A stretch of 64,000 nucleotides of DNA, taken from NCBI GenBank assembly GCA_963662275.1, contig OY759316.1:1920001-1984000 (forward strand), in the 5' to 3' direction. A model generated the notes under the pieces. It saw only the letters and a program-made list of their open reading frames with translations, did not search any database and had not been told where the DNA came from. This DNA comes from Candidatus Cloacimonadales bacterium. GTDB lineage: Bacteria > Cloacimonadota > Cloacimonadia > Cloacimonadales > DAONDQ01. Made by a program: the position numbers and the translations under genes. Shown here in pieces: positions 41,362 through 55,943 of this stretch (positions within the stretch are counted from its first letter, which is position 1; the number at the start of each line of letters is the position of its first letter).

Positions 41362-44300
41362 ATGGCGGAAGCAATATTCAAACAGTACCTTGCCAATCTG
41401 CAAGCTACCCTGAATCAGGGTGATGCCCGGGAAGAGAGCTTTTATGAACATGTCAAGACCCTACTCCTGCAATTTGCTGAGCTTACAAACAAGAAAAAGC
41501 CGGATATCACGATTCTACCCAAAGCTACCGAAGCCGGGAATCCGGACTTTCGTGTATGGGATGGTAAAAACCACATAACCGGTTATATTGAAGCCAAAGC
41601 CCCCAGTGTGTTCCATCTTGACCAGATCGAAACTTCAGAACAGTTGAAGCGTTATCTGAAAGTCTTTCCCAATCTGATCCTGACTAATTTCTATGAGTTT
41701 CGCCTTTATCAGCATGGTATTATGATTTGCACTGCTATGATTGGCAGAGCATCCAATGCCATTACTTTGCATAAAACTCCCCCGCTGGAGCAAGCAGAGC
41801 AGTTTAGCTACCTTTTAGAACGTTACTTTGCCTTTTCACTGCCTTCTATCAATAACCCCAAGTCACTTGCCAAGGAGCTTGCCAAACGCACCCGTTTCTT
41901 GCGGGATGAGATTATCGCTATCGAACTGGCTGAGGAAGAGAGACAGGGAAAGAAAGTCCTACTGGGCTTCTATGATTCTTTCAAACGATTACTGATTAAT
42001 AAACTGACCCATGAGCAATTTGCCGACCTGTATGCCCAAACACTAACCTACGGCATCTTTGCAGCCCGCACCAAGTCTGAAGGTGAATTCAACCGTGAGT
42101 TGATTTACAAGTATATCCCTAATACACTTGGTGTGCTGAAAAGCATCTTTAAGTTTATCTCTTATGACGAACCGCCCAAAGCACTCGAGGTTTTGATAGA
42201 CGACATTGCTGAAATCCTCTGCGTGACAGACATCAAAAAGATACTGCATGCCTATTACAAAGAAGGTAAAGGCAGTGATCCCATCATCCATTTCTATGAG
42301 ACTTTCCTCTCGGAATACGACCCGACTCTCAGGGAAAAGCGGGGAGTATATTACACACCTGAACCTGTGGTGCGCTACATCGTCAAATCCATCCACAGCA
42401 TCCTCAAATCTCATTTTAATTTGAAAGACGGACTGGCAGACAGTGCTGTCACTCTGCTTGACCCGGCTGCCGGTACCCTTACCTTTCCGGCAGAAGCCAT
42501 CAAACTGGCTGTGCAGGAATATACAGGCAAGTACGGCTCCGGAAGTATCAAACAAATGATCAGGAATCATATTCTCCCGCATTTCTATGCCTTGGAACTG
42601 ATGATGGCACCCTACACAGTTGGACATCTGAAAATCAGCTATCTGCTGGATGAATTGGGCTACCAGATGACTGAAGATGAGAGGTTCAAACTCTACCTGT
42701 CGAATACGCTGGAAAAGGATATACCTATTCAATCAGAATTAGCTTTTGCACACGAGATTACAGAAGAATGCCTGCTTGCCAATAAGGTAAAACAGGATGA
42801 GCCGGTGCTGGTAATCCTTGGTAATCCGCCTTATAGTGGTATGAGTGAAAACAACAACCCCTGGACCGAGCAACTGCTCAAACAGGATTTGGACGGTGCA
42901 ACCAGTTACTACAAAGTGGATGGAATGCTATTGGGAGAAGCAAATCCCAAAATGCTGCAAGATGACTATGTGAAGTTTATCCGTTTTGCCCAATGGAAGA
43001 TACACAAGGCAGGTAAAGGCATTGTGGGAATGGTAACGAACCACAGCTATATAGATAATGCCACCTTTAAAGGCATGAGACAAAGCCTGATGCATACCTT
43101 TGACCAGATCTATGTCTTGGATTTGCACGGCAACAGCACCAAGAAAGAAACCGCTCCCGATGGCAGTAAAGACGAGAATGTATTTGATATCAGGACAGGG
43201 GTAGCCATCTTACTTATGATAAAAGACGGCACTGCTGAAAAGAGATTTTATCATGGAGATTTGTATGGACTTCGGTCTGCCAAATATGATTGTCTGAATG
43301 ATAATAGCATTGATAGCTTTGAATATACGTTAATCAATCCCAAGCAGCCGTTTTATCTCTTCAAACACTTATCTGATGATAAAGCTCATTATTTAAGTTG
43401 GGATAAAGTCAATGATGTATTTCCTATAAACAGTGCCGGTATTCAAACTGCAAGAGATAACCTGACTATTCAGTTTGATAAACATATAATGCTAAACACA
43501 GTCAATCAGTTTACTAAACTCGATACTGAAACTGCACGGCAGGCTTATGAATTGGGTAAAGATTCGAGAGATTGGAAAATTGATTTAGCCCAAAAAGACT
43601 TAAAGGAATCAGGACTTAATTCTGATAATATAAAACCTATTCTCTACAGACCTTTCGATATCAGATTTACTTACTATACCGGCAAGTGTAGAGGATTTCA
43701 TAGTATGCCAAGAAATGAGGTCATGCAGCACATAAAGAACAACAATTTAGGTTTAATTCTGGGCAGACAGGGTCAGGTAGTGGGCTCAGATTATTTATGG
43801 AACTTGGCTTATATTACTTCAAGTATGATTGATTATAATGTGTACTATCGGGGTGGCGGAGTTTTATTGCCATTGTATCTGCATCCCGATTCACATTCAG
43901 ATGATCTCTTTGCAGCACAGGAAACGCAAGTTAATATCAAACCGGAACTGCTTGAAGAATTCGCTAAGCAGGACTTATCGGCAGAAACCATCTTCTATTA
44001 TATCTATGGCACTCTTTATAGCAATATCTATCGGGAACGTTATGCAGAGTATCTCAGGATAGATTTCCCTCGCATTCCTTTCACCAAAGACACCCAGCTT
44101 TTCAAGCAAATGGCAGTATATGGCAAGCAGATAGTAGATTTGCACCTGATGCAGAGCAGTGAACTGGACACACCCATAGCGAAGTATCAGGGCAACAGCG
44201 ATAATGACAAAGTGGAACATGTAAGCTATGACGAGTCACAAGGACGCATCTATATCAATCAGGATAAGTACTTTGAAGGCATCAGTCCGGAAGTATGGAA

Positions 44301-44484
44301 CTATCACATCGGTGGTTACCAAGTACTGCACAAATACCTCAAAGACCGCAAGGGCAAAATCATGGATGATCCCATCTACTATTGCCGTATAGTAACCGCT
44401 CTGAGTAAAACAATTGAGTATCAGAATAAGATAGACGAGATATATGAGGAATTGGAAGCAAGTTTGGAACGCCTCACCCCGTGA
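41362..44484 (+). CDS. Fused restriction endonuclease/N6-adenine methyltransferase (type IIG/ISP-like, no helicase)
   Basis: N-terminal PDF...IEAK (PD-(D/E)xK), GVYYTP, LDPAAGT motif I, GNPPY motif IV, C-terminal specificity-like region (YRPFD, DFPRIP). Confidence 0.88.
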   Translation: MAEAIFKQYLANLQATLNQGDAREESFYEHVKTLLLQFAELTNKKKPDITILPKATEAGNPDFRVWDGKNHITGYIEAKAPSVFHLDQIETSEQLKRYLKVFPNLILTNFYEFRLYQHGIMICTAMIGRASNAITLHKTPPLEQAEQFSYLLERYFAFSLPSINNPKSLAKELAKRTRFLRDEIIAIELAEEERQGKKVLLGFYDSFKRLLINKLTHEQFADLYAQTLTYGIFAARTKSEGEFNRELIYKYIPNTLGVLKSIFKFISYDEPPKALEVLIDDIAEILCVTDIKKILHAYYKEGKGSDPIIHFYETFLSEYDPTLREKRGVYYTPEPVVRYIVKSIHSILKSHFNLKDGLADSAVTLLDPAAGTLTFPAEAIKLAVQEYTGKYGSGSIKQMIRNHILPHFYALELMMAPYTVGHLKISYLLDELGYQMTEDERFKLYLSNTLEKDIPIQSELAFAHEITEECLLANKVKQDEPVLVILGNPPYSGMSENNNPWTEQLLKQDLDGATSYYKVDGMLLGEANPKMLQDDYVKFIRFAQWKIHKAGKGIVGMVTNHSYIDNATFKGMRQSLMHTFDQIYVLDLHGNSTKKETAPDGSKDENVFDIRTGVAILLMIKDGTAEKRFYHGDLYGLRSAKYDCLNDNSIDSFEYTLINPKQPFYLFKHLSDDKAHYLSWDKVNDVFPINSAGIQTARDNLTIQFDKHIMLNTVNQFTKLDTETARQAYELGKDSRDWKIDLAQKDLKESGLNSDNIKPILYRPFDIRFTYYTGKCRGFHSMPRNEVMQHIKNNNLGLILGRQGQVVGSDYLWNLAYITSSMIDYNVYYRGGGVLLPLYLHPDSHSDDLFAAQETQVNIKPELLEEFAKQDLSAETIFYYIYGTLYSNIYRERYAEYLRIDFPRIPFTKDTQLFKQMAVYGKQIVDLHLMQSSELDTPIAKYQGNSDNDKVEHVSYDESQGRIYINQDKYFEGISPEVWNYHIGGYQVLHKYLKDRKGKIMDDPIYYCRIVTALSKTIEYQNKIDEIYEELEASLERLTP

Positions 44485-45792: not shown

Positions 45793-48700
45793 TTAATCAG
45801 TTGATGCTACAACACGGTAGAATTTCTTGCTTATTCCTACAGAATTTGTCGTCCATGTAATCCTAGTTCTGGTTCCGTTATTATCCCGCTGGTATGCACG
45901 ACTGCTCCGAATAAACTGCTCAGTAGAAGCATACTTAGAGCCTGTATTAATAGCAGAAGTTCGGGCAGAACTAAACACACCTTGTGAAGAGATATTAGTG
46001 AAAGTCCCATTCGTTGAGTCAGACGCAATGATTTTATATGAACTTGCCCCACTAACGCTATCCCAACTGATTTGAATTAACGGATCGTTCGCTGTAATCG
46101 TTATGTTTTGTGGTGTTCCGACAGAGTCTTGTCCAGCGTAAGCAATGATATACTGGCAGAAAGAGGTAATAGAATTGAACGTTACAGTATTAGCATCGGC
46201 ATCAACAGCATAAGCCTGAGTTGCCAAAGTCCATGCAGCATCTGAACTGCTGCTTCGGGTATACAATTTGAAATATTCGGGATGTGATTCATCTGCAACG
46301 GTGACGTTTTCATTCACTGAGAAAATCAGATTTGCATTGAAGCTCCCTGAGCCATAACGATTAACTATCCAGTATTGTGAATCATATACAATTATAGATC
46401 CGCTTGGATTGAGATTGGGTGCCTGATTCAATTTGGTAACAGTAACAGAAGCGCCATCATAGCTATCATAATAGATGAGAAGTCCAGTACCTGGAAAGCT
46501 GACATTTCCACTGATTTCTTCACGGGTATAAGTATTACCCTGTCCGAAGGGAATTGTTGAGGAGCACCAAGAACCGCTGCTCATATTGGTCAACGTTCCA
46601 TTTAAACCGGAGATAAGTTCATTTGCAGAAGAACCGCTATTATCATTGAACTGCCAGTAGGCAACCAAACCTGTTTCATTCCCTGATAATGGTAAACTGG
46701 CATTTTCCCTGATTTGCTGCGCAGATAGGGCAACATTCCATAATCTGACTTCATCCATTAGTCCTTTGTATAATTGGGTCCCACTGGTTCCGGAACCAAT
46801 TACCTTATTACTTGTATTATTCACAAAGGTATAATTAGCATCCGAGATAAGAGACATCTCCTGACCGTTAACATATATTTTATGAGTTCCTGCTCCGGTG
46901 CCGCTTCTTGTATAGACAATATGATTCCACATACCGGGTGTAATGGCATTATCATTAGTCTGGGCTACCCAGGTGCTTAATCCTGAAACAGCAACTCTGT
47001 TTGTGCCACCGCTTCCAATCCCAATTTCCAGTTGGAATGATCCGGCGGAATTATTGAATGCGGTGGAATAGATTCCTTGCCTTGTAGTCATTATATCAGG
47101 TTTTACCCATGCCTCCAGGGAAAGGACATTGCCAGCATTTAGAACAGTGCTGTTTCCAACATTTATATAATCATCTGTTCCATCAAAAAGCAAGCAAGTT
47201 CCGGCTACACCTTCCGGACCTGTGCCTTGTGCCACAGAGAATTCACTGAATGAGGAAAGTCCTGTTAATAAGAACGTCCTGCTACTTACATTTTGGGTTG
47301 CAGTTGTGGTAATATCTGTCCAGTCAGATAAGGGATTATTTCTCTTCAAAAGTCGGACAAACTGATAATCGGCAAGCGGGATATTGGAATAATTGATAGA
47401 CAGATTGGCTGTAACGGTACCTGTTTTAAAAACACCCCAGACTGCATCAGCTCTCTGGGTTATATTCCCGGGAAAAGTCTCTGAGTCAATAACATCGGTA
47501 CCGCTTCCGGTATAATAAATCCCCAGGAAATTGCTGTTATCGGGTGTTGTTGTGATTGTAAGTGTCATTTGCTTACCTGTACTGCCGATACTTGTTGGAG
47601 TTGCAGTCCGTACAGAAGTTCCCAGCACACCCATAGAGACACTCGAATGAACCCAGCTAAAGTCTGACATATTATTCATCGTTCCGTTATACCCGTTACC
47701 GCTTAGATCAGAAACAACACTTCCGGTCACATTATTGAAGTTATAATACATCAAAAGATTAGTTGTGGGAGGTGTGGCAAATTTACACATATTATCCTGA
47801 ATCTGAGCCTGTGTACGGGCTGTATTCCACACTCTGAATTCATCCAGCTGACCATTAAAGAAACTTGACCCTGCTCTGTAACCTATCGTAAGGGGAGGAA
47901 CAGGTGCTATCCAGGGATTAACTGTTGACGTGACCAGGCTGCCATTTACATATAACTGTGAAGTAACTGCCATTCCTGCTTTAATCCAGGTTACAGCACA
48001 GTGATACCATGTATTGGTGTTCAGAGTTGAATAGATAAGAGAATTGCCTGAAGAACCAATCCAGACATATAACCTATTACTTGCTATAGTACAATAAAAG
48101 TTGGATGAGCCACTTGTTTCAGACCACAAATATCCTCCGGAGATATCATTCGCTTTAAACCAGAACTCAATCGTACCCTGGTTGGGAAGTGTGACCGGAA
48201 TTGTAATATTATCATCATTCCCATCAAAGTCAAGAGCGTTATTTAGTCGGTATGGCGTAGAGAATTCAGTGTCAGCTCCGTATCCTGTCCCGACCGCATT
48301 GGTGGCATAAGCGTGGACATGATACCTGGTATCATGTGTCAAACCTGTTAAATTGCCTGTGAAAGTACCTAATCCGGCGCCATTGGTTGTATGCAGTCCA
48401 TCTACCGTGGGATTAGCAGAAGTACTCCAGCAAATGCCTCTGGCTGTAACTGCTTCTCCGTTTTCGGAGGTAACGCTTCCTTCACAAATTGCTGCTACTG
48501 TATCTATCAATGAGATGGTATTGGTTGTTACTGTGGGCACATCATCGGTTGTAAAGGATAACTCCTCACCATAGCCTGTTCCTACTCCGTTTTTGGCATA
48601 AGCCCTGACGTAGTATTTTGTACCCTTAGCAAGTCCTGTTATTGATGCAGAGAAAGTTCCTGTACCTGTCCCGCAATAAGTTTGAGTATCTGTTATTAAA

Positions 48701-50277
48701 GGGGTAGGGGATGTTTTCCAACACACTCCTTTTTCGGTAATACTGTTGTTTCCATCGCTCGAAATAGTACCTCCGCTTCTGGCGGATCTATAATCTACAT
48801 TCGTAATTGCAGTTGTGCTGATTGTTGCAAAAGTGTCTGTAGTAAACGACAGTTCATTACCATATCCTACACCGATGCCGTTAATTGCATAAGCCCTGAT
48901 ATAATATGTTGTAGAGTGACTCAATCCTGTTATCGATGAACTAAAATAAGTAACACTACTCCCATCATTGGTGTGGGGATCTGTTACTGTGGGATTGTGA
49001 CTGGTACTCCAACAGACACCCCTCGAATAAATATATGAACCATGGTCATTCATTAAGTATCCACCGCTAGTCGCAGTTGTAACGCCAATATTTTCAATTG
49101 GACGGGTAGTTATACTGGGATAATTAGCCAGGATAAAACTCTTCTCTGTACCATATTTCGTCGTTAATTGGTCTGTTACGTATGATCGCACATAATAGGT
49201 GATTTCTGAAGTCAGGTCAGTCAGATTTGTAGTATAATGCCCGGGAACTGTTCCATAGTGTGTGTGCGAGCCGGAGATGGTCGGGTTTGGAGAAGTACCC
49301 CAACAGATACCATAGGCACTGAATGTGAGCAAAGAGTTTGGTTCTAAGGTTGCTCCAGATGTTGCAGATGAATTTGTCATAGCAGTAATGTCATCTGTAT
49401 TGATAACAGAACTTACCTCATAATGCACAATAGTAGAATGATGTTTTCCTATCAGCATGTCAAGATAACCATCATGGTCAATATCTGCAAAACAAGGTGC
49501 TGCACAAGCCAGGACTTCGGTATTTGAGAAATTAGTACTGGCAAGAGTAAATGTGTTCGAATTAACTGAGTTTTGAATATACTGATAGGTAAAACCATCA
49601 TAGTTACCCACAAATAAATCCAGAAAACCATCATTATTGTAATCTGTTACATAAGGAACAGATTCATTACCGATATCGATACCATTAAAATTGTTGGTTA
49701 CTAATACAAAACTCGAGGAATTATGTGCAGTTTGTTCAAAATGCGTTATCACTCCGCTACTCTCTCCAACTAACAAATCAAGCCTGCCATCACCATCCAG
49801 ATCACAGAAGAAAGGGTTGGCAGCTGAACCGACATAGAGACTACAAAAGTCATTGGTCACAAGTGTGAAATCAGATGAATTAGGTGCACTTTGCCTGTAA
49901 TAATAAAGATATCCTCTCTGACCTGAATAACTGTTCCCTATAATCAAATCAAGCAGTCCATCACCATCAAAATCTGTGATAGTGGGAGAAGGATATGATG
50001 CAACTACTATCCCGCTAAAAAAACTGGAGCGCTCCACAAAGGTCAAAGAGCCATAACTGCTTTGCTCCCAATGAGCTAATTTGTTACCACTGATTCCACC
50101 GAATATCAGATCAATAAGTCCATCATGATCCAAATCCGTCAGACAAGGTTTGGAAGCCATTACCGAATAACTAATATTCGAAAAGCTGTTCGTAACCAGG
50201 TTGAAATCACCTGCATGAAGGTTGGATATAAAAATTAAAAGTGCAATCAGGCAGTATCCTTTAGTAATTTTGCTCAT
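45793..50277 (-). CDS. Secreted FG-GAP/VCBS repeat + FN3 + 2x LamG protein with FYRVVA C-terminal domain
   Basis: Start ATG 50277 (MSKITKG) with GGAGG RBS. D.D.DG..DL..G repeats, FN3 YYVRAYA units and LamG motifs. Confidence 0.9.
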   Translation of the reverse strand: MSKITKGYCLIALLIFISNLHAGDFNLVTNSFSNISYSVMASKPCLTDLDHDGLIDLIFGGISGNKLAHWEQSSYGSLTFVERSSFFSGIVVASYPSPTITDFDGDGLLDLIIGNSYSGQRGYLYYYRQSAPNSSDFTLVTNDFCSLYVGSAANPFFCDLDGDGRLDLLVGESSGVITHFEQTAHNSSSFVLVTNNFNGIDIGNESVPYVTDYNNDGFLDLFVGNYDGFTYQYIQNSVNSNTFTLASTNFSNTEVLACAAPCFADIDHDGYLDMLIGKHHSTIVHYEVSSVINTDDITAMTNSSATSGATLEPNSLLTFSAYGICWGTSPNPTISGSHTHYGTVPGHYTTNLTDLTSEITYYVRSYVTDQLTTKYGTEKSFILANYPSITTRPIENIGVTTATSGGYLMNDHGSYIYSRGVCWSTSHNPTVTDPHTNDGSSVTYFSSSITGLSHSTTYYIRAYAINGIGVGYGNELSFTTDTFATISTTAITNVDYRSARSGGTISSDGNNSITEKGVCWKTSPTPLITDTQTYCGTGTGTFSASITGLAKGTKYYVRAYAKNGVGTGYGEELSFTTDDVPTVTTNTISLIDTVAAICEGSVTSENGEAVTARGICWSTSANPTVDGLHTTNGAGLGTFTGNLTGLTHDTRYHVHAYATNAVGTGYGADTEFSTPYRLNNALDFDGNDDNITIPVTLPNQGTIEFWFKANDISGGYLWSETSGSSNFYCTIASNRLYVWIGSSGNSLIYSTLNTNTWYHCAVTWIKAGMAVTSQLYVNGSLVTSTVNPWIAPVPPLTIGYRAGSSFFNGQLDEFRVWNTARTQAQIQDNMCKFATPPTTNLLMYYNFNNVTGSVVSDLSGNGYNGTMNNMSDFSWVHSSVSMGVLGTSVRTATPTSIGSTGKQMTLTITTTPDNSNFLGIYYTGSGTDVIDSETFPGNITQRADAVWGVFKTGTVTANLSINYSNIPLADYQFVRLLKRNNPLSDWTDITTTATQNVSSRTFLLTGLSSFSEFSVAQGTGPEGVAGTCLLFDGTDDYINVGNSTVLNAGNVLSLEAWVKPDIMTTRQGIYSTAFNNSAGSFQLEIGIGSGGTNRVAVSGLSTWVAQTNDNAITPGMWNHIVYTRSGTGAGTHKIYVNGQEMSLISDANYTFVNNTSNKVIGSGTSGTQLYKGLMDEVRLWNVALSAQQIRENASLPLSGNETGLVAYWQFNDNSGSSANELISGLNGTLTNMSSGSWCSSTIPFGQGNTYTREEISGNVSFPGTGLLIYYDSYDGASVTVTKLNQAPNLNPSGSIIVYDSQYWIVNRYGSGSFNANLIFSVNENVTVADESHPEYFKLYTRSSSSDAAWTLATQAYAVDADANTVTFNSITSFCQYIIAYAGQDSVGTPQNITITANDPLIQISWDSVSGASSYKIIASDSTNGTFTNISSQGVFSSARTSAINTGSKYASTEQFIRSSRAYQRDNNGTRTRITWTTNSVGISKKFYRVVASTD

Positions 50278-50432
50278 TCTATTCCTCCGGAATTCTCGAA
50301 TCTGAATATGTTGAACGAAGCTGCAAGCAGCAGTACCGTTCGCAGTAAACTCGTGTTTCATGCATTTAAACTATTGATATACTGAACCCTCACTAAAAGC
50401 ATACTTACCCCCAAAATTAACTGGAGGTAAGT

Positions 50433-51305
50433 ATGGAATCATACGAAGTTCGCTTTTTAGAGTGCCTTGATCTTCGAGGCGTGTCCCGAGAGACAAAATA
50501 CAATTACATCAGACAAGTCACTTCTTTAGCATCATATTATGGTCAAGACCCCGGCACACTATCTATTGAACAGGTAAGAACATATTTTGTCTACCTGCAT
50601 AACGTCAAGAATTATAGTCCTCAGAGTTTAAAATCAGCCTATTATGGCATCAGATTTTTTTTCATCCATGTTGTTGGTTTCAGGCAAGAGGATTTTACCT
50701 TTTTTAAGGCAAAGATTGAGCACAAACTTCCTGTGATTCTGACCACAGACGAAGTTAGAATGCTTATCTCCCGCATTCATACTTATGATTATCGACTCTT
50801 ACTGACTCTTACCTATCAATGCGGATTAAGGATTTCGGAAGCAGTCAAGATTAAAATAGCCGATATCAACCGGGAATTGATGACCATCACGGTAAGGCAA
50901 TCCAAAGGCAACAAAGACAGGTCAATACCTCTGCCTGAAAAATTGTATCAGGAACTCCGGGAATATTGGAAAACCCATCAGAACAGACAGCTTTTATTCC
51001 CGAGCAGAAGCACCAGACAGGCTGATATTAACAGAATGACAACCTCGAACCAGATTTCTGTCCAAACTCTTCGGTCAGCTCTGAAGTCAGCCTTAAAGGA
51101 GACACGCATCCCTAAGCATGTAACCTGTCATACACTCAGACATTCTTATGCCACACATTTATTGGAAGCAGGTGTCAGTATCATCATCATCAAAGACTTG
51201 CTCGGGCACGAAAGTCTTAGAGCGACCATGGTATACGTGCATTTGACTAACGTTTCCCGAGAGCAGTCATGTAAAATCATCAATGAACTGATGAATAAGA
51301 TGTAA
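50433..51305 (+). CDS. Site-specific tyrosine recombinase/integrase
   Basis: GLRISE, KGNKDR, HTLRHSYATHLLEAG, LLGH...T..Y catalytic motifs. Confidence 0.93.
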   Translation: MESYEVRFLECLDLRGVSRETKYNYIRQVTSLASYYGQDPGTLSIEQVRTYFVYLHNVKNYSPQSLKSAYYGIRFFFIHVVGFRQEDFTFFKAKIEHKLPVILTTDEVRMLISRIHTYDYRLLLTLTYQCGLRISEAVKIKIADINRELMTITVRQSKGNKDRSIPLPEKLYQELREYWKTHQNRQLLFPSRSTRQADINRMTTSNQISVQTLRSALKSALKETRIPKHVTCHTLRHSYATHLLEAGVSIIIIKDLLGHESLRATMVYVHLTNVSREQSCKIINELMNKM

Positions 51306-52448
51306 ATGGATTTTAGCAGGATTCTCAAAAACAACCTGTCCGAGTATCTGGAAAAATATGGAAACCAGTCACCGGAAAGCCATTTAAGAGCGATCAGAGA
51401 TATTCTCCTTTGCCGGACACCTGAACTGGGCGGAGAAGTCTATTTATGCCAGGAATGTGCGGAACTGCATTATTCCTATCATTCCTGCAAAAACCGTCAC
51501 TGCCCGAAGTGTGGCCGTAATGATTCAGCGAAATGGCTGGAAAAGCAGCTTGCCAAACTGCTGCCGGTTAAGTACTTCATGGTAACTTTCACCATACCCC
51601 GGGAACTGCACAAAACATGCCTGTCAAATCAGAAACTGCTTTATGATCTTCAGTTCAAAGCATCATCTGAAGCCTTAAAGACATTGCTTTCAGATCCCAA
51701 ATATGCCGGTGGCGTTTCAGGCTTTACCGGGGTACTTCATACCTGGACAAGGCAGCTTGAATATCATCCTCATATTCATTATATAGTCCCCGGCGGAGCT
51801 TGGAATAAAGAACGAAAGGAATGGCAAAAAGCAGGCAATAAGTTCCTGATTCCGGTCAAAGCTCTTTCGGTGATTTACCGGGCAAAATTCCGTGATTTGC
51901 TTCGACTGGAAAATCAGCATCTGTTTGGTCGGATATCCCCGCTAGTCTGGCAGCAAAAAGAGTTTGTCACAGACTCCCGACCCGTCGGAAAAGGTCGGGA
52001 GGCTCTGACTTATTTGGCCAATTATGTGTATCGGACCGCCATCACCAACAATCGCATCCTTTGGGAAAAGGACGGGCTGGTAACCTTTAAATACAAGCCG
52101 GCAGGTTCAGCTAAATTCGCCTTTAAAAGCGTCGACTCCGTGGAGTTTATCAATAAGTTCCTGATGCATGTTCTGCCGCAGGGATTTCAGAAAATCAGAT
52201 ACTACGGATTTCTCAGTCCGGCGGCAAAATCTGTCTGGGAGATGGTCAACAGCTTTTTCCCAGCAAAGTCCGATTCTAATGACAAGAATCAGACAGCTAA
52301 AACTTTTGTAATTCCCAAATTTGAAAAAGACCTCTGCCCTAATTGCAAATCAAAGATGACACAGCATGCTTCAATTACCGGAAAACCAAGATCACCGCCT
52401 TGGTCGCTGTTGTTTTTGGCAAATTGCTTTGATGGCGGTAAACTGTAA
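51306..52448 (+). CDS. IS91-family (Y2 HUH) transposase with N-terminal zinc-binding domain
   Basis: SCKNRHCPKC, TFTIP, LHTW..HPHIH (HUH), YLANY (YxxxY), HVLP.GF..IRYYG. Confidence 0.92.
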   Translation: MDFSRILKNNLSEYLEKYGNQSPESHLRAIRDILLCRTPELGGEVYLCQECAELHYSYHSCKNRHCPKCGRNDSAKWLEKQLAKLLPVKYFMVTFTIPRELHKTCLSNQKLLYDLQFKASSEALKTLLSDPKYAGGVSGFTGVLHTWTRQLEYHPHIHYIVPGGAWNKERKEWQKAGNKFLIPVKALSVIYRAKFRDLLRLENQHLFGRISPLVWQQKEFVTDSRPVGKGREALTYLANYVYRTAITNNRILWEKDGLVTFKYKPAGSAKFAFKSVDSVEFINKFLMHVLPQGFQKIRYYGFLSPAAKSVWEMVNSFFPAKSDSNDKNQTAKTFVIPKFEKDLCPNCKSKMTQHASITGKPRSPPWSLLFLANCFDGGKL

Positions 52449-52784
52449 GTTAATTTTACCGACGGGATTGTCTTGCCTAAATTATAGAAACAACCGAAAT
52501 ATTACAGGCAATTTGCTAAAATACTTGAAAACAATATCAGCCCATACACAAAAAGTCTGATCTCAAAGTGATTTGATAACTTCTGAAAAGAAAATCATCT
52601 CTTCCATTGGTAAAAGACTCTGCTAAAATTGTAAAAATCCAATTCAACCCAAGAAATCTTCAAAAAGCAATTTCCAAATACATATTCAAAATCACCCTGC
52701 TACTTGAGCTTGTTCAACAGCATATCCAATCATGTCTATGATGGGAAATGCTTATTATGTTATACTTCATTATTTAAGTATATG

Positions 52785-53157: not shown

Positions 53158-53397
53158 CCTCCCTTCATCTGAAGGGAGGAATTCAGCAGGAACGGCGTTC
53201 AGGGACGTACGAAGTGCGAAGTGCGAAGTACGAATGCAGAAAGCAGGAACGGCGTCCTACTCTACGCGGCAGACAGTAAGATCGGCATCTTACTCCACAG
53301 CTCAGCAGGAACAGATTCATACCCTATACAGCAGACAGTAAGATTGGCATCTTACTCCACAATTTAGAAGAGGATAGACACATGGGTCTATCCCTAC
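53158..53397 (-). repeat. Cluster of REP-like hairpins
   Basis: Minus-strand GTAGAGTAGGACGCCGTTCCTGCT, two copies of GTGGAGTAAGATGCC.ATCTTACT, GTAGGGATAGACCCATGTGTCTATCC (also at 3974-3999), and a CCTCCCTT..AAGGGAGG hairpin. Confidence 0.75.
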
Positions 53398-55943
53398 AAT
53401 TCTTCTTCAGATAAACCGTATTTCTTGATTTTACGTTCAATGACTTTACGATCTACTTTCAGAAGATTAGCAGCTTGCACACGGTTAAACCCGGTAGCTC
53501 TCAGGGTATTCAATAACATCAATCTTTCCATATCCTGGAGCGGGATGATGTCCTGCATAATATCAGCCCCGTCTTTTTTAACAGGGATGAGAAAATTCTC
53601 CAAATGCAGTGTGGAACTATTAGTGACTAGCACAGCTCTCTCCACCATATTCTTCAATTCACGTATATTACCCGGGTAGTCGTAATTCATCAAATGGGGG
53701 AGAATATCCCTATCAATTTTATTGATCTTCTTATTCAAAGCATTGGAAGACAAGCCAACAAAATGCTCTAATAATAAAGGAATATCTTCTTTATGTTCCC
53801 TCAGGGGTGGAATGTTAATGACAAAGATTGCCAGCCGGTGATAGAGATCACGTCTGAATTCAGATGAATTGACTTTATCTATCAGGTTGAGGTTTGTTGC
53901 GCTGATGATCCTGACGTCTATTGGTATTTCCTTATATGAGCCAACTCTGATAATGCTTCTTTCTTCCAAAACACGGAGCAGCTTTGCCTGTTGCTCATGA
54001 GATAGATTACCTATTTCATCCAGGAATAAAGAGCTTTTATTGGAAATTTCAAACCAACCTATCTTAGCGGTGTTTGCCCCAGTAAAAGAATCTTTCTCAT
54101 GCCCGAAGAACTGGCTTTCAAACAGAGCTTCCGGTACGGCAGAGCAATTAACTGCATAGAAGTGTTGTTTTGCCCGTTTGCTGCTGGCATGGATGTTACG
54201 GGCTACAATTTCCTTACCTGTCCCTGTTTCACCTGTGATAAGCACATTTGTCTTATCTGAATGCGCTACGAGGGTTATCATTTCAATGATCTTACGAATA
54301 GACTCACTCGTCCCAATCAGAGTAGTCTTGATATCCTTAGTCAATTCATCAGATACGAAGTTATAACGTATTTCACTATTATGTAGTTTATCGAGAGTAT
54401 CCTGGAGTTTAGCTTTCTGCTTTTCTATTTCCTGGTTCTTTGCTTCCAGTTCGAGATTCCTCTGACGGTATAATTCTGCTTCCCTTTCTTTCTTTTCGGT
54501 TTCATATTTCGTCTGCATCTCTGCTATTTTGGTAACACTATCTTCTTTTACAAGCTTATCCTTTTCTTCACTGTATTGCAGAAGAGCTCGACAGGCTTTT
54601 TCATATTCATGTTTCAGTAAATAAATCTCATAATAACGATGATGTATTTCTATATACATTTTTTCATATTCATTTTCATGAATCAGCTTTTCTGCTTTTT
54701 GCAATATAGAAAGGGCTTCGTCGCTTTTTTCATTTTGAATCAGAACTTGAACCATCTGTATTTCAATGCTGGCTTGCTGAAACTGTTCTTTTATTTCTAC
54801 AGCTATTTTATGTGCATTATCCAAATATTCCATTGCCTTCTGATAATCTTTGAAATATGTTGAATAGATGATACCGATATTCTCCAATACTATGGTCATA
54901 TTTGATTTATCACTAATTTCCTCTGCCAGTTCCAGAGATTTAATAAAACAATCAAAAGCTTCCTGATATTCTTCCCGTTCTAAATAGATATTTCCAATGT
55001 TATTCTGGAGCATGGATTTTTGATTGATATCACCAATCGCTTCAAAATGAGTTAGTGCTTTTGTGTAATATTCAAGTGCAGTGTCCAGATCCCCGAAATC
55101 CTTATAAAATACTCCCAGGTTCAGCCAATTGGTTGCAAGGCTGTTCATGTCCTTTAATTCCTCTTTAATTCTAGTGGACTTTAAGGAATATTCGATTGCT
55201 TTTTCCAGATTGTTCATCTTATGATAAATAACAGCAACGGCATTCAAGTCCATGGCAATTTGCTTCAGGTTATTCGATTTTTCATAATAAGCAATACATT
55301 CAAATTTTAAATTCAAGGCTTCCATTAATTTACCTTGTGCATTCAAATAATTTGCCATATTACTCAAAGCCAAATATTCCAGATCGATTCTACCGAGCTT
55401 TTTAAATCCCTTTATTGCTTCATTTACGCATGAGATAGAAAGATCAGTATTTCCACGGGAATTATGCAGAACCCCCAGGTTCATGTATATACCAGCAACT
55501 TCCAATGTATCTTTTCTTTTCTTGAATGTCACCAGTGCTTTTTGAAAGAATGAAATAGCCAAGTCCAAATGGTTCATTCGCCAGTGCAATCTCGCCATCA
55601 TATTGTAAACCTGGTGAATAAACTCATAATCATATCCATGGGAAGTTATTGTGAGCAATTGATCTAGAATCGATAGTGCTTCATCTATATCAAACATGAG
55701 AAAATGGCATCTGCCAAGAAGGTGCAATATTTCCATTTGCTTATCGAACAAAGTATTTGCTTGCGCAAGTTTCAATGCCCTTTGGAGTCTATCCATACAT
55801 ACCGGACATTTATCCTTATCCGGCTTATCCGGTTCAGGGCATTTTTCCATAAGCTTTGAAAGATCGGATAGGAAAGAAACCTCTGGTTTCTGGGTTCGAC
55901 CAGCTTTTTTATTCATAATATTTCCTATATTGCTGGAGTTCAT
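53394..55943 (-). CDS. sigma-54-dependent transcriptional activator (TPR repeats, AAA+, HTH) with variant DSFTGA loop
   Basis: GETGTGKE, FFGHEKDSFTGA, LFLDEI, YPGNIREL, HTH and many TPRs. The true start may be 55916. Confidence 0.92.
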   Translation of the reverse strand: MNSSNIGNIMNKKAGRTQKPEVSFLSDLSKLMEKCPEPDKPDKDKCPVCMDRLQRALKLAQANTLFDKQMEILHLLGRCHFLMFDIDEALSILDQLLTITSHGYDYEFIHQVYNMMARLHWRMNHLDLAISFFQKALVTFKKRKDTLEVAGIYMNLGVLHNSRGNTDLSISCVNEAIKGFKKLGRIDLEYLALSNMANYLNAQGKLMEALNLKFECIAYYEKSNNLKQIAMDLNAVAVIYHKMNNLEKAIEYSLKSTRIKEELKDMNSLATNWLNLGVFYKDFGDLDTALEYYTKALTHFEAIGDINQKSMLQNNIGNIYLEREEYQEAFDCFIKSLELAEEISDKSNMTIVLENIGIIYSTYFKDYQKAMEYLDNAHKIAVEIKEQFQQASIEIQMVQVLIQNEKSDEALSILQKAEKLIHENEYEKMYIEIHHRYYEIYLLKHEYEKACRALLQYSEEKDKLVKEDSVTKIAEMQTKYETEKKEREAELYRQRNLELEAKNQEIEKQKAKLQDTLDKLHNSEIRYNFVSDELTKDIKTTLIGTSESIRKIIEMITLVAHSDKTNVLITGETGTGKEIVARNIHASSKRAKQHFYAVNCSAVPEALFESQFFGHEKDSFTGANTAKIGWFEISNKSSLFLDEIGNLSHEQQAKLLRVLEERSIIRVGSYKEIPIDVRIISATNLNLIDKVNSSEFRRDLYHRLAIFVINIPPLREHKEDIPLLLEHFVGLSSNALNKKINKIDRDILPHLMNYDYPGNIRELKNMVERAVLVTNSSTLHLENFLIPVKKDGADIMQDIIPLQDMERLMLLNTLRATGFNRVQAANLLKVDRKVIERKIKKYGLSEEEL

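Follow-up and report, generated by a model that had tools for sequence, protein, structure and literature searches.

The inverted repeat analysed here is part of a mobile element with two enzyme genes, for which we propose a relay between the two enzymes through a folded single-stranded circle. In this reading, to which we give a probability of roughly 60%, an IS91-family HUH transposase would excise the element and a tyrosine recombinase would insert it. The repeat is terminal on the left side of the element and subterminal on the right. Positions refer to the window, i.e. the whole stretch of 64,000 nucleotides that was analysed, unless the label of another record is given. The element comprises the following features:

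50310..52761, plus strand: whole mobile element between two GTT triplets, one GTT being common to the target (13 genome copies; breaks in contigs from public runs).
50310..50312, plus strand: left GTT, present in 13 of 13 copies; the crossover by the recombinase is proposed to fall between G 50310 and T 50311, a register deduced from relatives.
50313..50316, minus strand: terIS-type tetramer (GTTC on the minus strand; family variants GTTC, CTTG, GTCC) with the proposed HUH termination nick between 50313 and 50312.
50313..50322, plus strand: left arm of the conserved outer stem with bulged G 50317 (relatives' ends).
50320..50331, no strand: the left end's own palindrome, terIS-like; 28 of 28 called left ends have an own hairpin.
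50433..51305, plus strand: tyrosine recombinase of 290 aa, integron-integrase-like without the IntI insertion (R133, K158, H233, R236, H259 and Y268 intact).
51306..52448, plus strand: IS91-family Y2 HUH transposase of 380 aa (HUH 154-158, YxxxY 236-240, zinc cysteines; NF033538).
52707..52718, plus strand: right arm of the conserved outer stem and core of the repeat, ending in the R''-like box GTTCAAC at 52712-52718 (relatives' ends).
52720..52751, no strand: inner hairpin, the loop of which holds the T/C variation at 52735 (copies and relatives).
52752..52761, plus strand: T-rich linker and right GTT, oriIS-like; the HUH enzyme is proposed to make its initiation nick on the minus strand immediately outside 52761 (copies and relatives).

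The complete genome contains 13 near-identical copies of the element (99.96-100% identity). All of them start with GTTGAAC at 50310, and on the right side 12 of 13 pass the hairpin (52720-52751) and a 7-nt linker and reach the GTT at 52759-52761, the 13th ending 7 nt short. Contigs from public runs break at the same boundaries, 50310 and 52762 (at most 3 samples from 2 studies, among which the source may be included). No circle junction was listed in 4 contig sets of such runs, a result of no weight because contigs lose rare forms. Two flanks in these contigs, at 50309 and 52762, were not found in this genome and suggest further insertion sites in the population. The sole recurring difference between the copies is T or C at 52735 in the loop of the inner hairpin (7 versus 6 copies). 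One copy (G000 2003829-2006282), the only one inserted into a long reading frame (311 aa), also has a 1-nt deletion near element position 52611, outside the genes. The right end of the odd copy (G000 2046490-2048937) terminates after TTATT; this would fit a cryptic bottom-strand nick displaced inward by 5 nt, to a position behind ACAT and before AAT, with subsequent entry between A and TT, and a local deletion would account for the short end equally well. Insertion sites lie outside any reading frame of at least 60 aa in 12 of 13 cases. A search of the genome at E<=1e-3 detected no one-ended or partial copies, and a hand count of the copies revealed no replication-strand bias (8 versus 5).

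In the window, the element is located about 30 bp upstream of the start of a large protein with FG-GAP, fibronectin III and LamG domains (45793-50361, minus strand; likely start near 50280), between the gene and the promoter region. The listed 1522-aa frame of this protein has a wrong start inside the element. The neighbourhood further contains a type ISP restriction-modification-like protein of 1040 aa (41362-44484, plus strand) and a TPR-rich sigma-54 activator of 849 aa (53394-55943, minus strand) with short tandem repeats downstream at about 53200-53360.

The two arms quoted in the initial annotation (50309-50333 on the minus strand and 52697-52719) gave one exact match each, with 0 expected. 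The one mismatch and the two single-base bulges between them were reproduced in the alignment and in the fold, and GTTCAAC, CTTG and GTTC are present in both arms. Using two 100-nt windows placed 2.36 kb apart, 1 of 3000 random genome placements equalled the score of the inverted repeat. The right arm had been taken as the terminus of the element, but 12 of 13 copies extend to the GTT ending at 52761, and the right boundary is located 42 nt beyond this arm. In a circle, the hairpin and linker of 40 nt (52719-52758) separate the two arms. The distal stretch of the repeat is the left end's own palindrome at 50320-50331, with a different loop in the close relatives L211, L214 and L216, and both the mismatch and the second bulge fall within the part that is not conserved in relatives.

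The transposase start directly adjoins the recombinase stop (coupled stop/start), and both enzymes are intact as judged by their conserved residues. The six catalytic residues of the recombinase listed above are invariant in 35 aligned sequences, and the HUH histidines, the YxxxY tyrosines and the zinc cysteines of the transposase in 40 of 40 aligned transposases, IS91 TnpA included. The transposase scores 363 bits with NF033538 (cut-off 125). The best family match of the recombinase is the integron integrase TIGR02249 (180 bits, short of the cut-off of 265), and its closest solved structure, by sequence and by fold, is the IntI4-attC complex 2A3V. Compared with 2A3V about 32 residues are missing, which correspond to the IntI-specific insertion in the catalytic domain. 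Both the integron-like recombinase group and its missing IntI insertion are noted in the available part of Smyshlyaev et al. (10.1101/542381). A host integron integrase as integrating enzyme was rejected, since none is found over cut-off in this genome.

Among 80 metagenome loci the transposase lies behind the recombinase in 70, and 9 of the remaining 10 have at most 160 bases left. On viral contigs, the gene pair was present in 2 of 80 loci. The relative L234/L263 has no recombinase gene; it resembles a truncated copy from a recombinase-bearing family (L297, 93%) and was set aside as uninformative. Of the loci with enough flank for calling ends (57), 29 gave full ends, and 28 were kept after L102 had been dropped for its shifted register; the uncalled loci include contigs ending too soon and ends without GTT. 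The left ends of these relatives consist of GTT, a tetramer, one base, five more pairing bases and a palindrome of their own, and the right ends of five bases, the complementary tetramer, AAC, a long hairpin of free sequence, a short T-rich linker and GTT. Pairing between the two ends amounts to 0.93-1.0 across 12 pairs and to 0.11-0.39 beyond (28 called ends), the high values being inflated because pairing served to call the ends. The tetramers covary (left/right, n=28: GAAC/GTTC 12, CAAG/CTTG 5, GGAC/GTCC 5, other 6). With ends called independently (n=26), 13 pair at 4 of 4 positions and 6 at 3 of 4, with a mean of 2.9 versus 2.2 for crossed pairs, and an unguided repeat test placed 12 of 49 loci within the top 5% of cross-controls. 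The comparison of homologous termini that had been suggested at the outset thus revealed a conserved and covarying core of 12 pairs, but the positions of the bulges are not conserved. The single left-arm bulge is found at position 8 in 12 of the 28 called ends, at position 7 in 3 and at position 4 in 1; it shifts even among close relatives (positions 4, 7 and 8). As this bulge is absent in the other 12 ends and the second one is unconserved, two extrahelical bases are not a trait of the family. In L221-L224 and L256 from rhizobial plasmids, a sequence starting with GTGTGCCC interrupts the bottom strand of the left end immediately behind the terIS palindrome. We take this start to be like the 5' end of a group II intron; class C introns interrupt attC hairpins in like manner.

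In the lowest-energy fold of the joined ends AAC and GTT are paired in 24 of 28 cases for the top and in 25 of 28 for the bottom strand. The folding z-score of the junction is -8.1 for the window's element (median -4.7). Folding energies show no strand bias, and the bottom strand folds more stably than the top in no more than 15 of 28. In 25 of 28 called ends a second TT/AA box was detected close to where the inner stem begins; in 22 of these 25 its distance is 3-5 nt to AAC and 7-9 nt to GTT. The window's own element has an A-A mismatch in this box and is among the 3 of 28 not scored. The inner bulges differ in side and place among relatives, with no fixed extrahelical base. For comparison, the R box of attC has the consensus RYYYAAC...GTTRRRY, the central unpaired spacer measures about 5 and 6 nt, and the extrahelical bases are located on the loop side. 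The bulges of the repeat, which had been likened to those of attC, sit on the outer R-box side and are unconserved, so that this likeness does not hold. According to the available text of PMC11641012, attC consists of two inverted boxes around an unpaired spacer. Since the joined ends are predicted to present likewise two inverted boxes around an unpaired spacer, they would follow the attC plan, but with a longer spacer and no fixed extrahelical base. The repeat is the outer, R-box side of this predicted attC-like fold.

Four active members of the IS91 family have a cleavage set of GTTC, CTTG, GTCC and CTCG-type tetramers (PMC13181058, available in part). On the minus strand the left tetramers are of this IS91 type in 28 of 28 called ends (GTTC, CTTG and GTCC variants), which suggests that the HUH enzyme cleaves there. 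An annotated IS91 copy begins with CGAG-TAGGCAGC and finishes with CCTATCGAT before GAAC, and the family of this element begins with GTT-GAAC-TAAGCCGC and finishes with CCTTAATTC-GTT. By eye, GAAC may answer to the CGAG of IS91 and the right GTT to GAT; profile support is weak, the IS91-end profile being placed weakly on the left (1.5 versus -1.6 bits) and inconsistently on the right. Both ends have hairpins of their own, the terIS-like and the oriIS-like end are distinct, and the right side ends without a terminal inverted repeat. The flank beside the oriIS-like end reads GTT-AnnY and not a GTTC/CTTG-type tetramer. It fits the IS91 target rule only if the tetramer is redefined as TAAC, and the junctions of relatives contradict this. 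IS91 inserts only from a bottom-strand single-stranded circle, as stated in the available part of PMC13181058.

The targets in this genome read WGTTAnnY in 12 of 12 intact copies, matching the R box (background frequencies: A 0.21, Y 0.50). The conspicuous positions are limited to the right box TTAnnY and to TT at -9/-8 (10 of 12 each). In five of them an ACATAA-like box lies 12 nt away across a small hairpin. The 22 distinct rhizobial targets show RCATAA-N6-TTATGY, that is inverted 6-bp boxes with the crossover at the spacer edge, and the complementarity of the boxes is 0.75 at spacer 6 and at most 0.30 at the other spacers from 0 to 15. Inverted boxes around a 6-bp spacer are the layout of a tyrosine-recombinase core site. 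Left-right covariation among these targets beyond the consensus is slight (0.75 versus a shuffled mean of 0.66; maximum printed 0.75). The symmetry with the 6-bp spacer is absent from the targets of this genome (0.33; the best value, at spacer 12, is 0.44) and likewise from the 22 targets of the metagenome set (0.33). A crude attC rule recognised 0 of 13 targets in this genome and 3 of 19 metagenome flanks versus 12 of 405 control GTTs. By eye, attC-looking hairpins that this rule missed lie ahead of close relatives, at L009 1575-1690 and in the left flanks of L214 and L216. Four targets of the element, at G000 2109455, 3040318, 908385 and 463211, are located in a REP-like host palindromic repeat family, and 13-20 empty paralogues span each site. 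On a Clostridium plasmid (L242 / L233) the element has inserted into a long inverted repeat, where it borders the short spacer. In the right flanks of several copies of a third rhizobial subfamily (L253, L256, L260, L268, L307, L234) a second GATTCA-like word recurs about 18 nt past the right end, representing either a longer end or a two-part target.

In the proposed relay, the HUH transposase would nick the bottom strand just outside the right GTT, make a second nick at GTTC, the terIS tetramer on the inner side of the left GTT, and close the displaced strand into a circle. This circle would carry the right-hand triplet, two bases of which stem from the previous target. In the single strand the ends would fold together into the 12-pair outer stem, the AAC/GTT core, an asymmetric loop and an inner hairpin with a second ATT/AAT-type box. 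The recombinase would cut between AA and C, i.e. between G and TT of the top strand, and exchange a single strand with a target that contains GTT; the resulting strand-exchange junction would be resolved by host replication, as happens when integron cassettes enter attG sites. For the insertion of bottom-strand attC into GWT sites, IntI needs a single cleavage (10.1101/2022.09.11.507474, available in part). The assignment of each cut to one of the enzymes is inferred, and so are the single-stranded state, the strand and the transfer of the relatives' mechanism to the window's element. A single-stranded circle made by the HUH enzyme and a recombinase acting on the folded junction had already been suggested in the initial annotation; the junctions of relatives support this part, but its geometry was wrong, as the ends do not meet at the repeat. 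Of the two outcomes named there as refuting the idea, a boundary at another place was observed, and missing conservation of the bulges was largely observed.

Several observations speak against the single-stranded relay. The recombinase is devoid of the IntI insertion, which is said to be needed for DNA recognition by IntI, and spacers of 3-5 and 7-9 nt are not attC-like on the cut strand. On the same side stand the targets of this genome and of the metagenome set without 6-bp-spacer symmetry, the A-A mismatch in the second box of the window's element, the even folding of both strands, the yield of full ends (29 of 57 loci), the unguided repeat test (12 of 49 loci), the weak profile placement of IS91 ends, the left dinucleotides of rhizobial copies that match no sibling (2 of 5, see below) and the distance of the relatives in which the registers were seen. 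The same relay with the recombinase acting on a double-stranded circle would accommodate the missing insertion, and also the lack of a folding strand preference (15/28), the unconserved bulges and the resemblance of the rhizobial targets to ordinary duplex core sites; the fold would then serve the HUH enzyme in end joining and origin recognition and merely resemble attC. We nevertheless consider this variant unlikely: at a distance of 6 bp from the crossover, the junction in duplex form offers no inverted box (about 2 of 6 positions match here), whereas in the fold such a box is perfectly paired and covaries between both ends, and IS91 itself, according to the available part of PMC13181058, inserts from single-stranded circles only.

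Since GTT is present at both ends and in all intact targets, the crossover is not placeable in this genome, and the registers were seen in rhizobial relatives. The set comprises 31 junction rows, all from 16 plasmid records; the rows are not all independent, as two tandem junctions were counted on both sides and some sites are common to several strains. The first base of the right triplet is the element's A in 31 of 31 rows, and that of the left triplet is variable (A10, C9, G7, T5; n=31). A constant first base on the right and a variable one on the left place the entry after base 1, which is the IntI position. Bases 2-3 of the triplet deviate from TT in 9 right and 5 left ends of the 31 rows. 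In 3 of 3 testable cases the left non-TT dinucleotide equals the right dinucleotide of a sibling with zero differences (CT of L269 to L266, TC of L266 to L271, GT of L261 to L251), the first two forming a chain L269 -> L266 -> L271 on one plasmid and the third lying within one strain. The chance of such a match is 0.009 if the dinucleotides arose by point mutation and 0.0006 if any dinucleotide is allowed; the remaining 2 of 5 have only TT siblings among the plasmid records searched. In a second subfamily the left GA of L247 equals the right GA of L238 (1 difference), and three identical copies have the right triplets CAA, CAT and CTT with left CTT. The third rhizobial subfamily, with a constant left ATT, gives no register. 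In the head-to-tail copies L288/L292, L301/L305 and L247/L243 the junction is visible in place. Because two bases pass from the right flank to the left end, the exit would lie after base 3 at both ends, where the IS91 enzyme cuts behind its tetramer. The rhizobial junctions thus fit a circle that would be excised at the position used by IS91 and would integrate at that of integrons, between G and TT. The transposases of these decisive relatives are only about 33-41% identical to that of the window. A recombinase stagger as in Tn916-type coupling, with a coupling length of about 6 bp, was rejected as source of the inherited bases, which are two in number and lie outside the 6-bp spacer.

A single fixed register, whether of the HUH enzyme or of the recombinase, predicts one constant side, but both sides vary. 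We favour the two-enzyme relay over fixed boundaries because identical rhizobial copies vary on both junction sides. Plain IS91 transposition, in which the HUH enzyme would perform all steps with a new tetramer (TAAC at target and origin, CAAC at the terminus) and the recombinase would resolve multimers or act as a regulator, is consistent with all intact junctions of this genome, with a layout and coupled stop/start like those of orf121-tnpA and with the tandem copies in relatives. It is improbable in view of the rhizobial copies, since it predicts a fixed boundary per end, provides no route for right-flank bases to the left end and leaves the inverted boxes with the 6-bp spacer unexplained; it holds only if the circle is opened again by the HUH enzyme two bases away from the point of closure, or if the window's element differs from its relatives. 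Least probable is a CTX-phage-like logic, in which the recombinase would excise and integrate between G and TT and the HUH enzyme would amplify the excised circle as replication initiator: the GTTC tetramer, which IS91 requires (PMC13181058, available in part), does lie beside the oriIS-like end in the circle alone, a variable RnnT taking this place in chromosomal copies, but left bases 2-3, predicted to be constant, vary and match the right flanks of siblings, and apart from the short palindrome the left end by itself forms no attC-like fold.

The pair of recombinase and IS91 transposase genes is already known from print. We found no published account of these ends, of the mechanism or of the role of the recombinase; subscription papers, ISfinder and TnCentral pages and bioRxiv supplements were outside the search and may hold one. 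The two-enzyme mechanism, for which the evidence comes from relatives, thus appears to be undescribed in the literature searched. Recombinase-bearing IS91 elements are common and include close kin of integron integrases; among 8000 scored sequences, 5849 recombinase matches reached E<=1e-20, not all of which need be of the IS91-paired kind. Somewhat short of an even chance, in our estimate, is the wider idea that these are widespread minimal elements in which the HUH enzyme excises and an integron-type recombinase integrates with cuts two bases apart, every copy recording the target of its donor; the R box of attC (RYYY-AAC) would then be an IS91 nick site plus the start of oriIS, and the elements living models of an ancestor of integron cassettes before the IntI insertion domain. 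The carry-over of two bases is a sharp and cheap test of the two-enzyme mechanism and lets transposition lineages be read from genomes, a link between IS91 nick sites and attC cores bears on the origin of integrons, and a compact system inserting single-stranded circles could serve as a tool.

Like the IS91 family (IS91, IS801, IS1294, IS1294b), the element has a Y2 HUH transposase, a terIS-like left palindrome behind a GTTC/CTTG/GTCC tetramer and a hairpin on the oriIS side, and makes no variable target duplication. Unlike IS91, which has orf121 at this position, it carries a recombinase as upstream gene; a triplet is common to both ends, the ends pair together, the base group beside oriIS is not GTTC/CTTG, and in relatives the registers of exit and entry differ by two bases. 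The element is a member of the subgroup of IS91-family elements that carry an integron-like tyrosine recombinase gene upstream (10.1101/542381, available in part) and have the same two-gene layout and end anatomy. For this subgroup the text consulted states neither the ends nor a target rule nor what the recombinase does. Annotated pairs of recombinase and IS91 transposase are found on rhizobial, Clostridium, Herpetosiphon and Photobacterium plasmids and in ISShvi3, which is reported beside attC as a cassette-like structure in the available part of PMC9229058.

With integron cassettes (IntI, attC/attG) the element shares IntI4-attC as closest structure, the crossover between G and TT in relatives and two inverted boxes around an unpaired spacer in the predicted single-strand fold, and its dispersed GTT targets resemble attG sites as described in the available part of 10.1101/2022.09.11.507474. 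It differs from them in that the recombinase lacks the IntI insertion and stays below the TIGR02249 cut-off, the site forms only when the ends are joined, the cut-strand spacer is 7-9 nt long, no extrahelical base is conserved, and the element carries its own enzymes. The CTX phage combines a HUH replicase and a single-stranded site that folds; it relies on XerCD of the host at dif and produces particles. In both the CTX phage and SE elements a tyrosine recombinase exchanges one strand and replication finishes the reaction, and SEs have no HUH enzyme (PMC9345347). Unlike both, the window's element has many targets.
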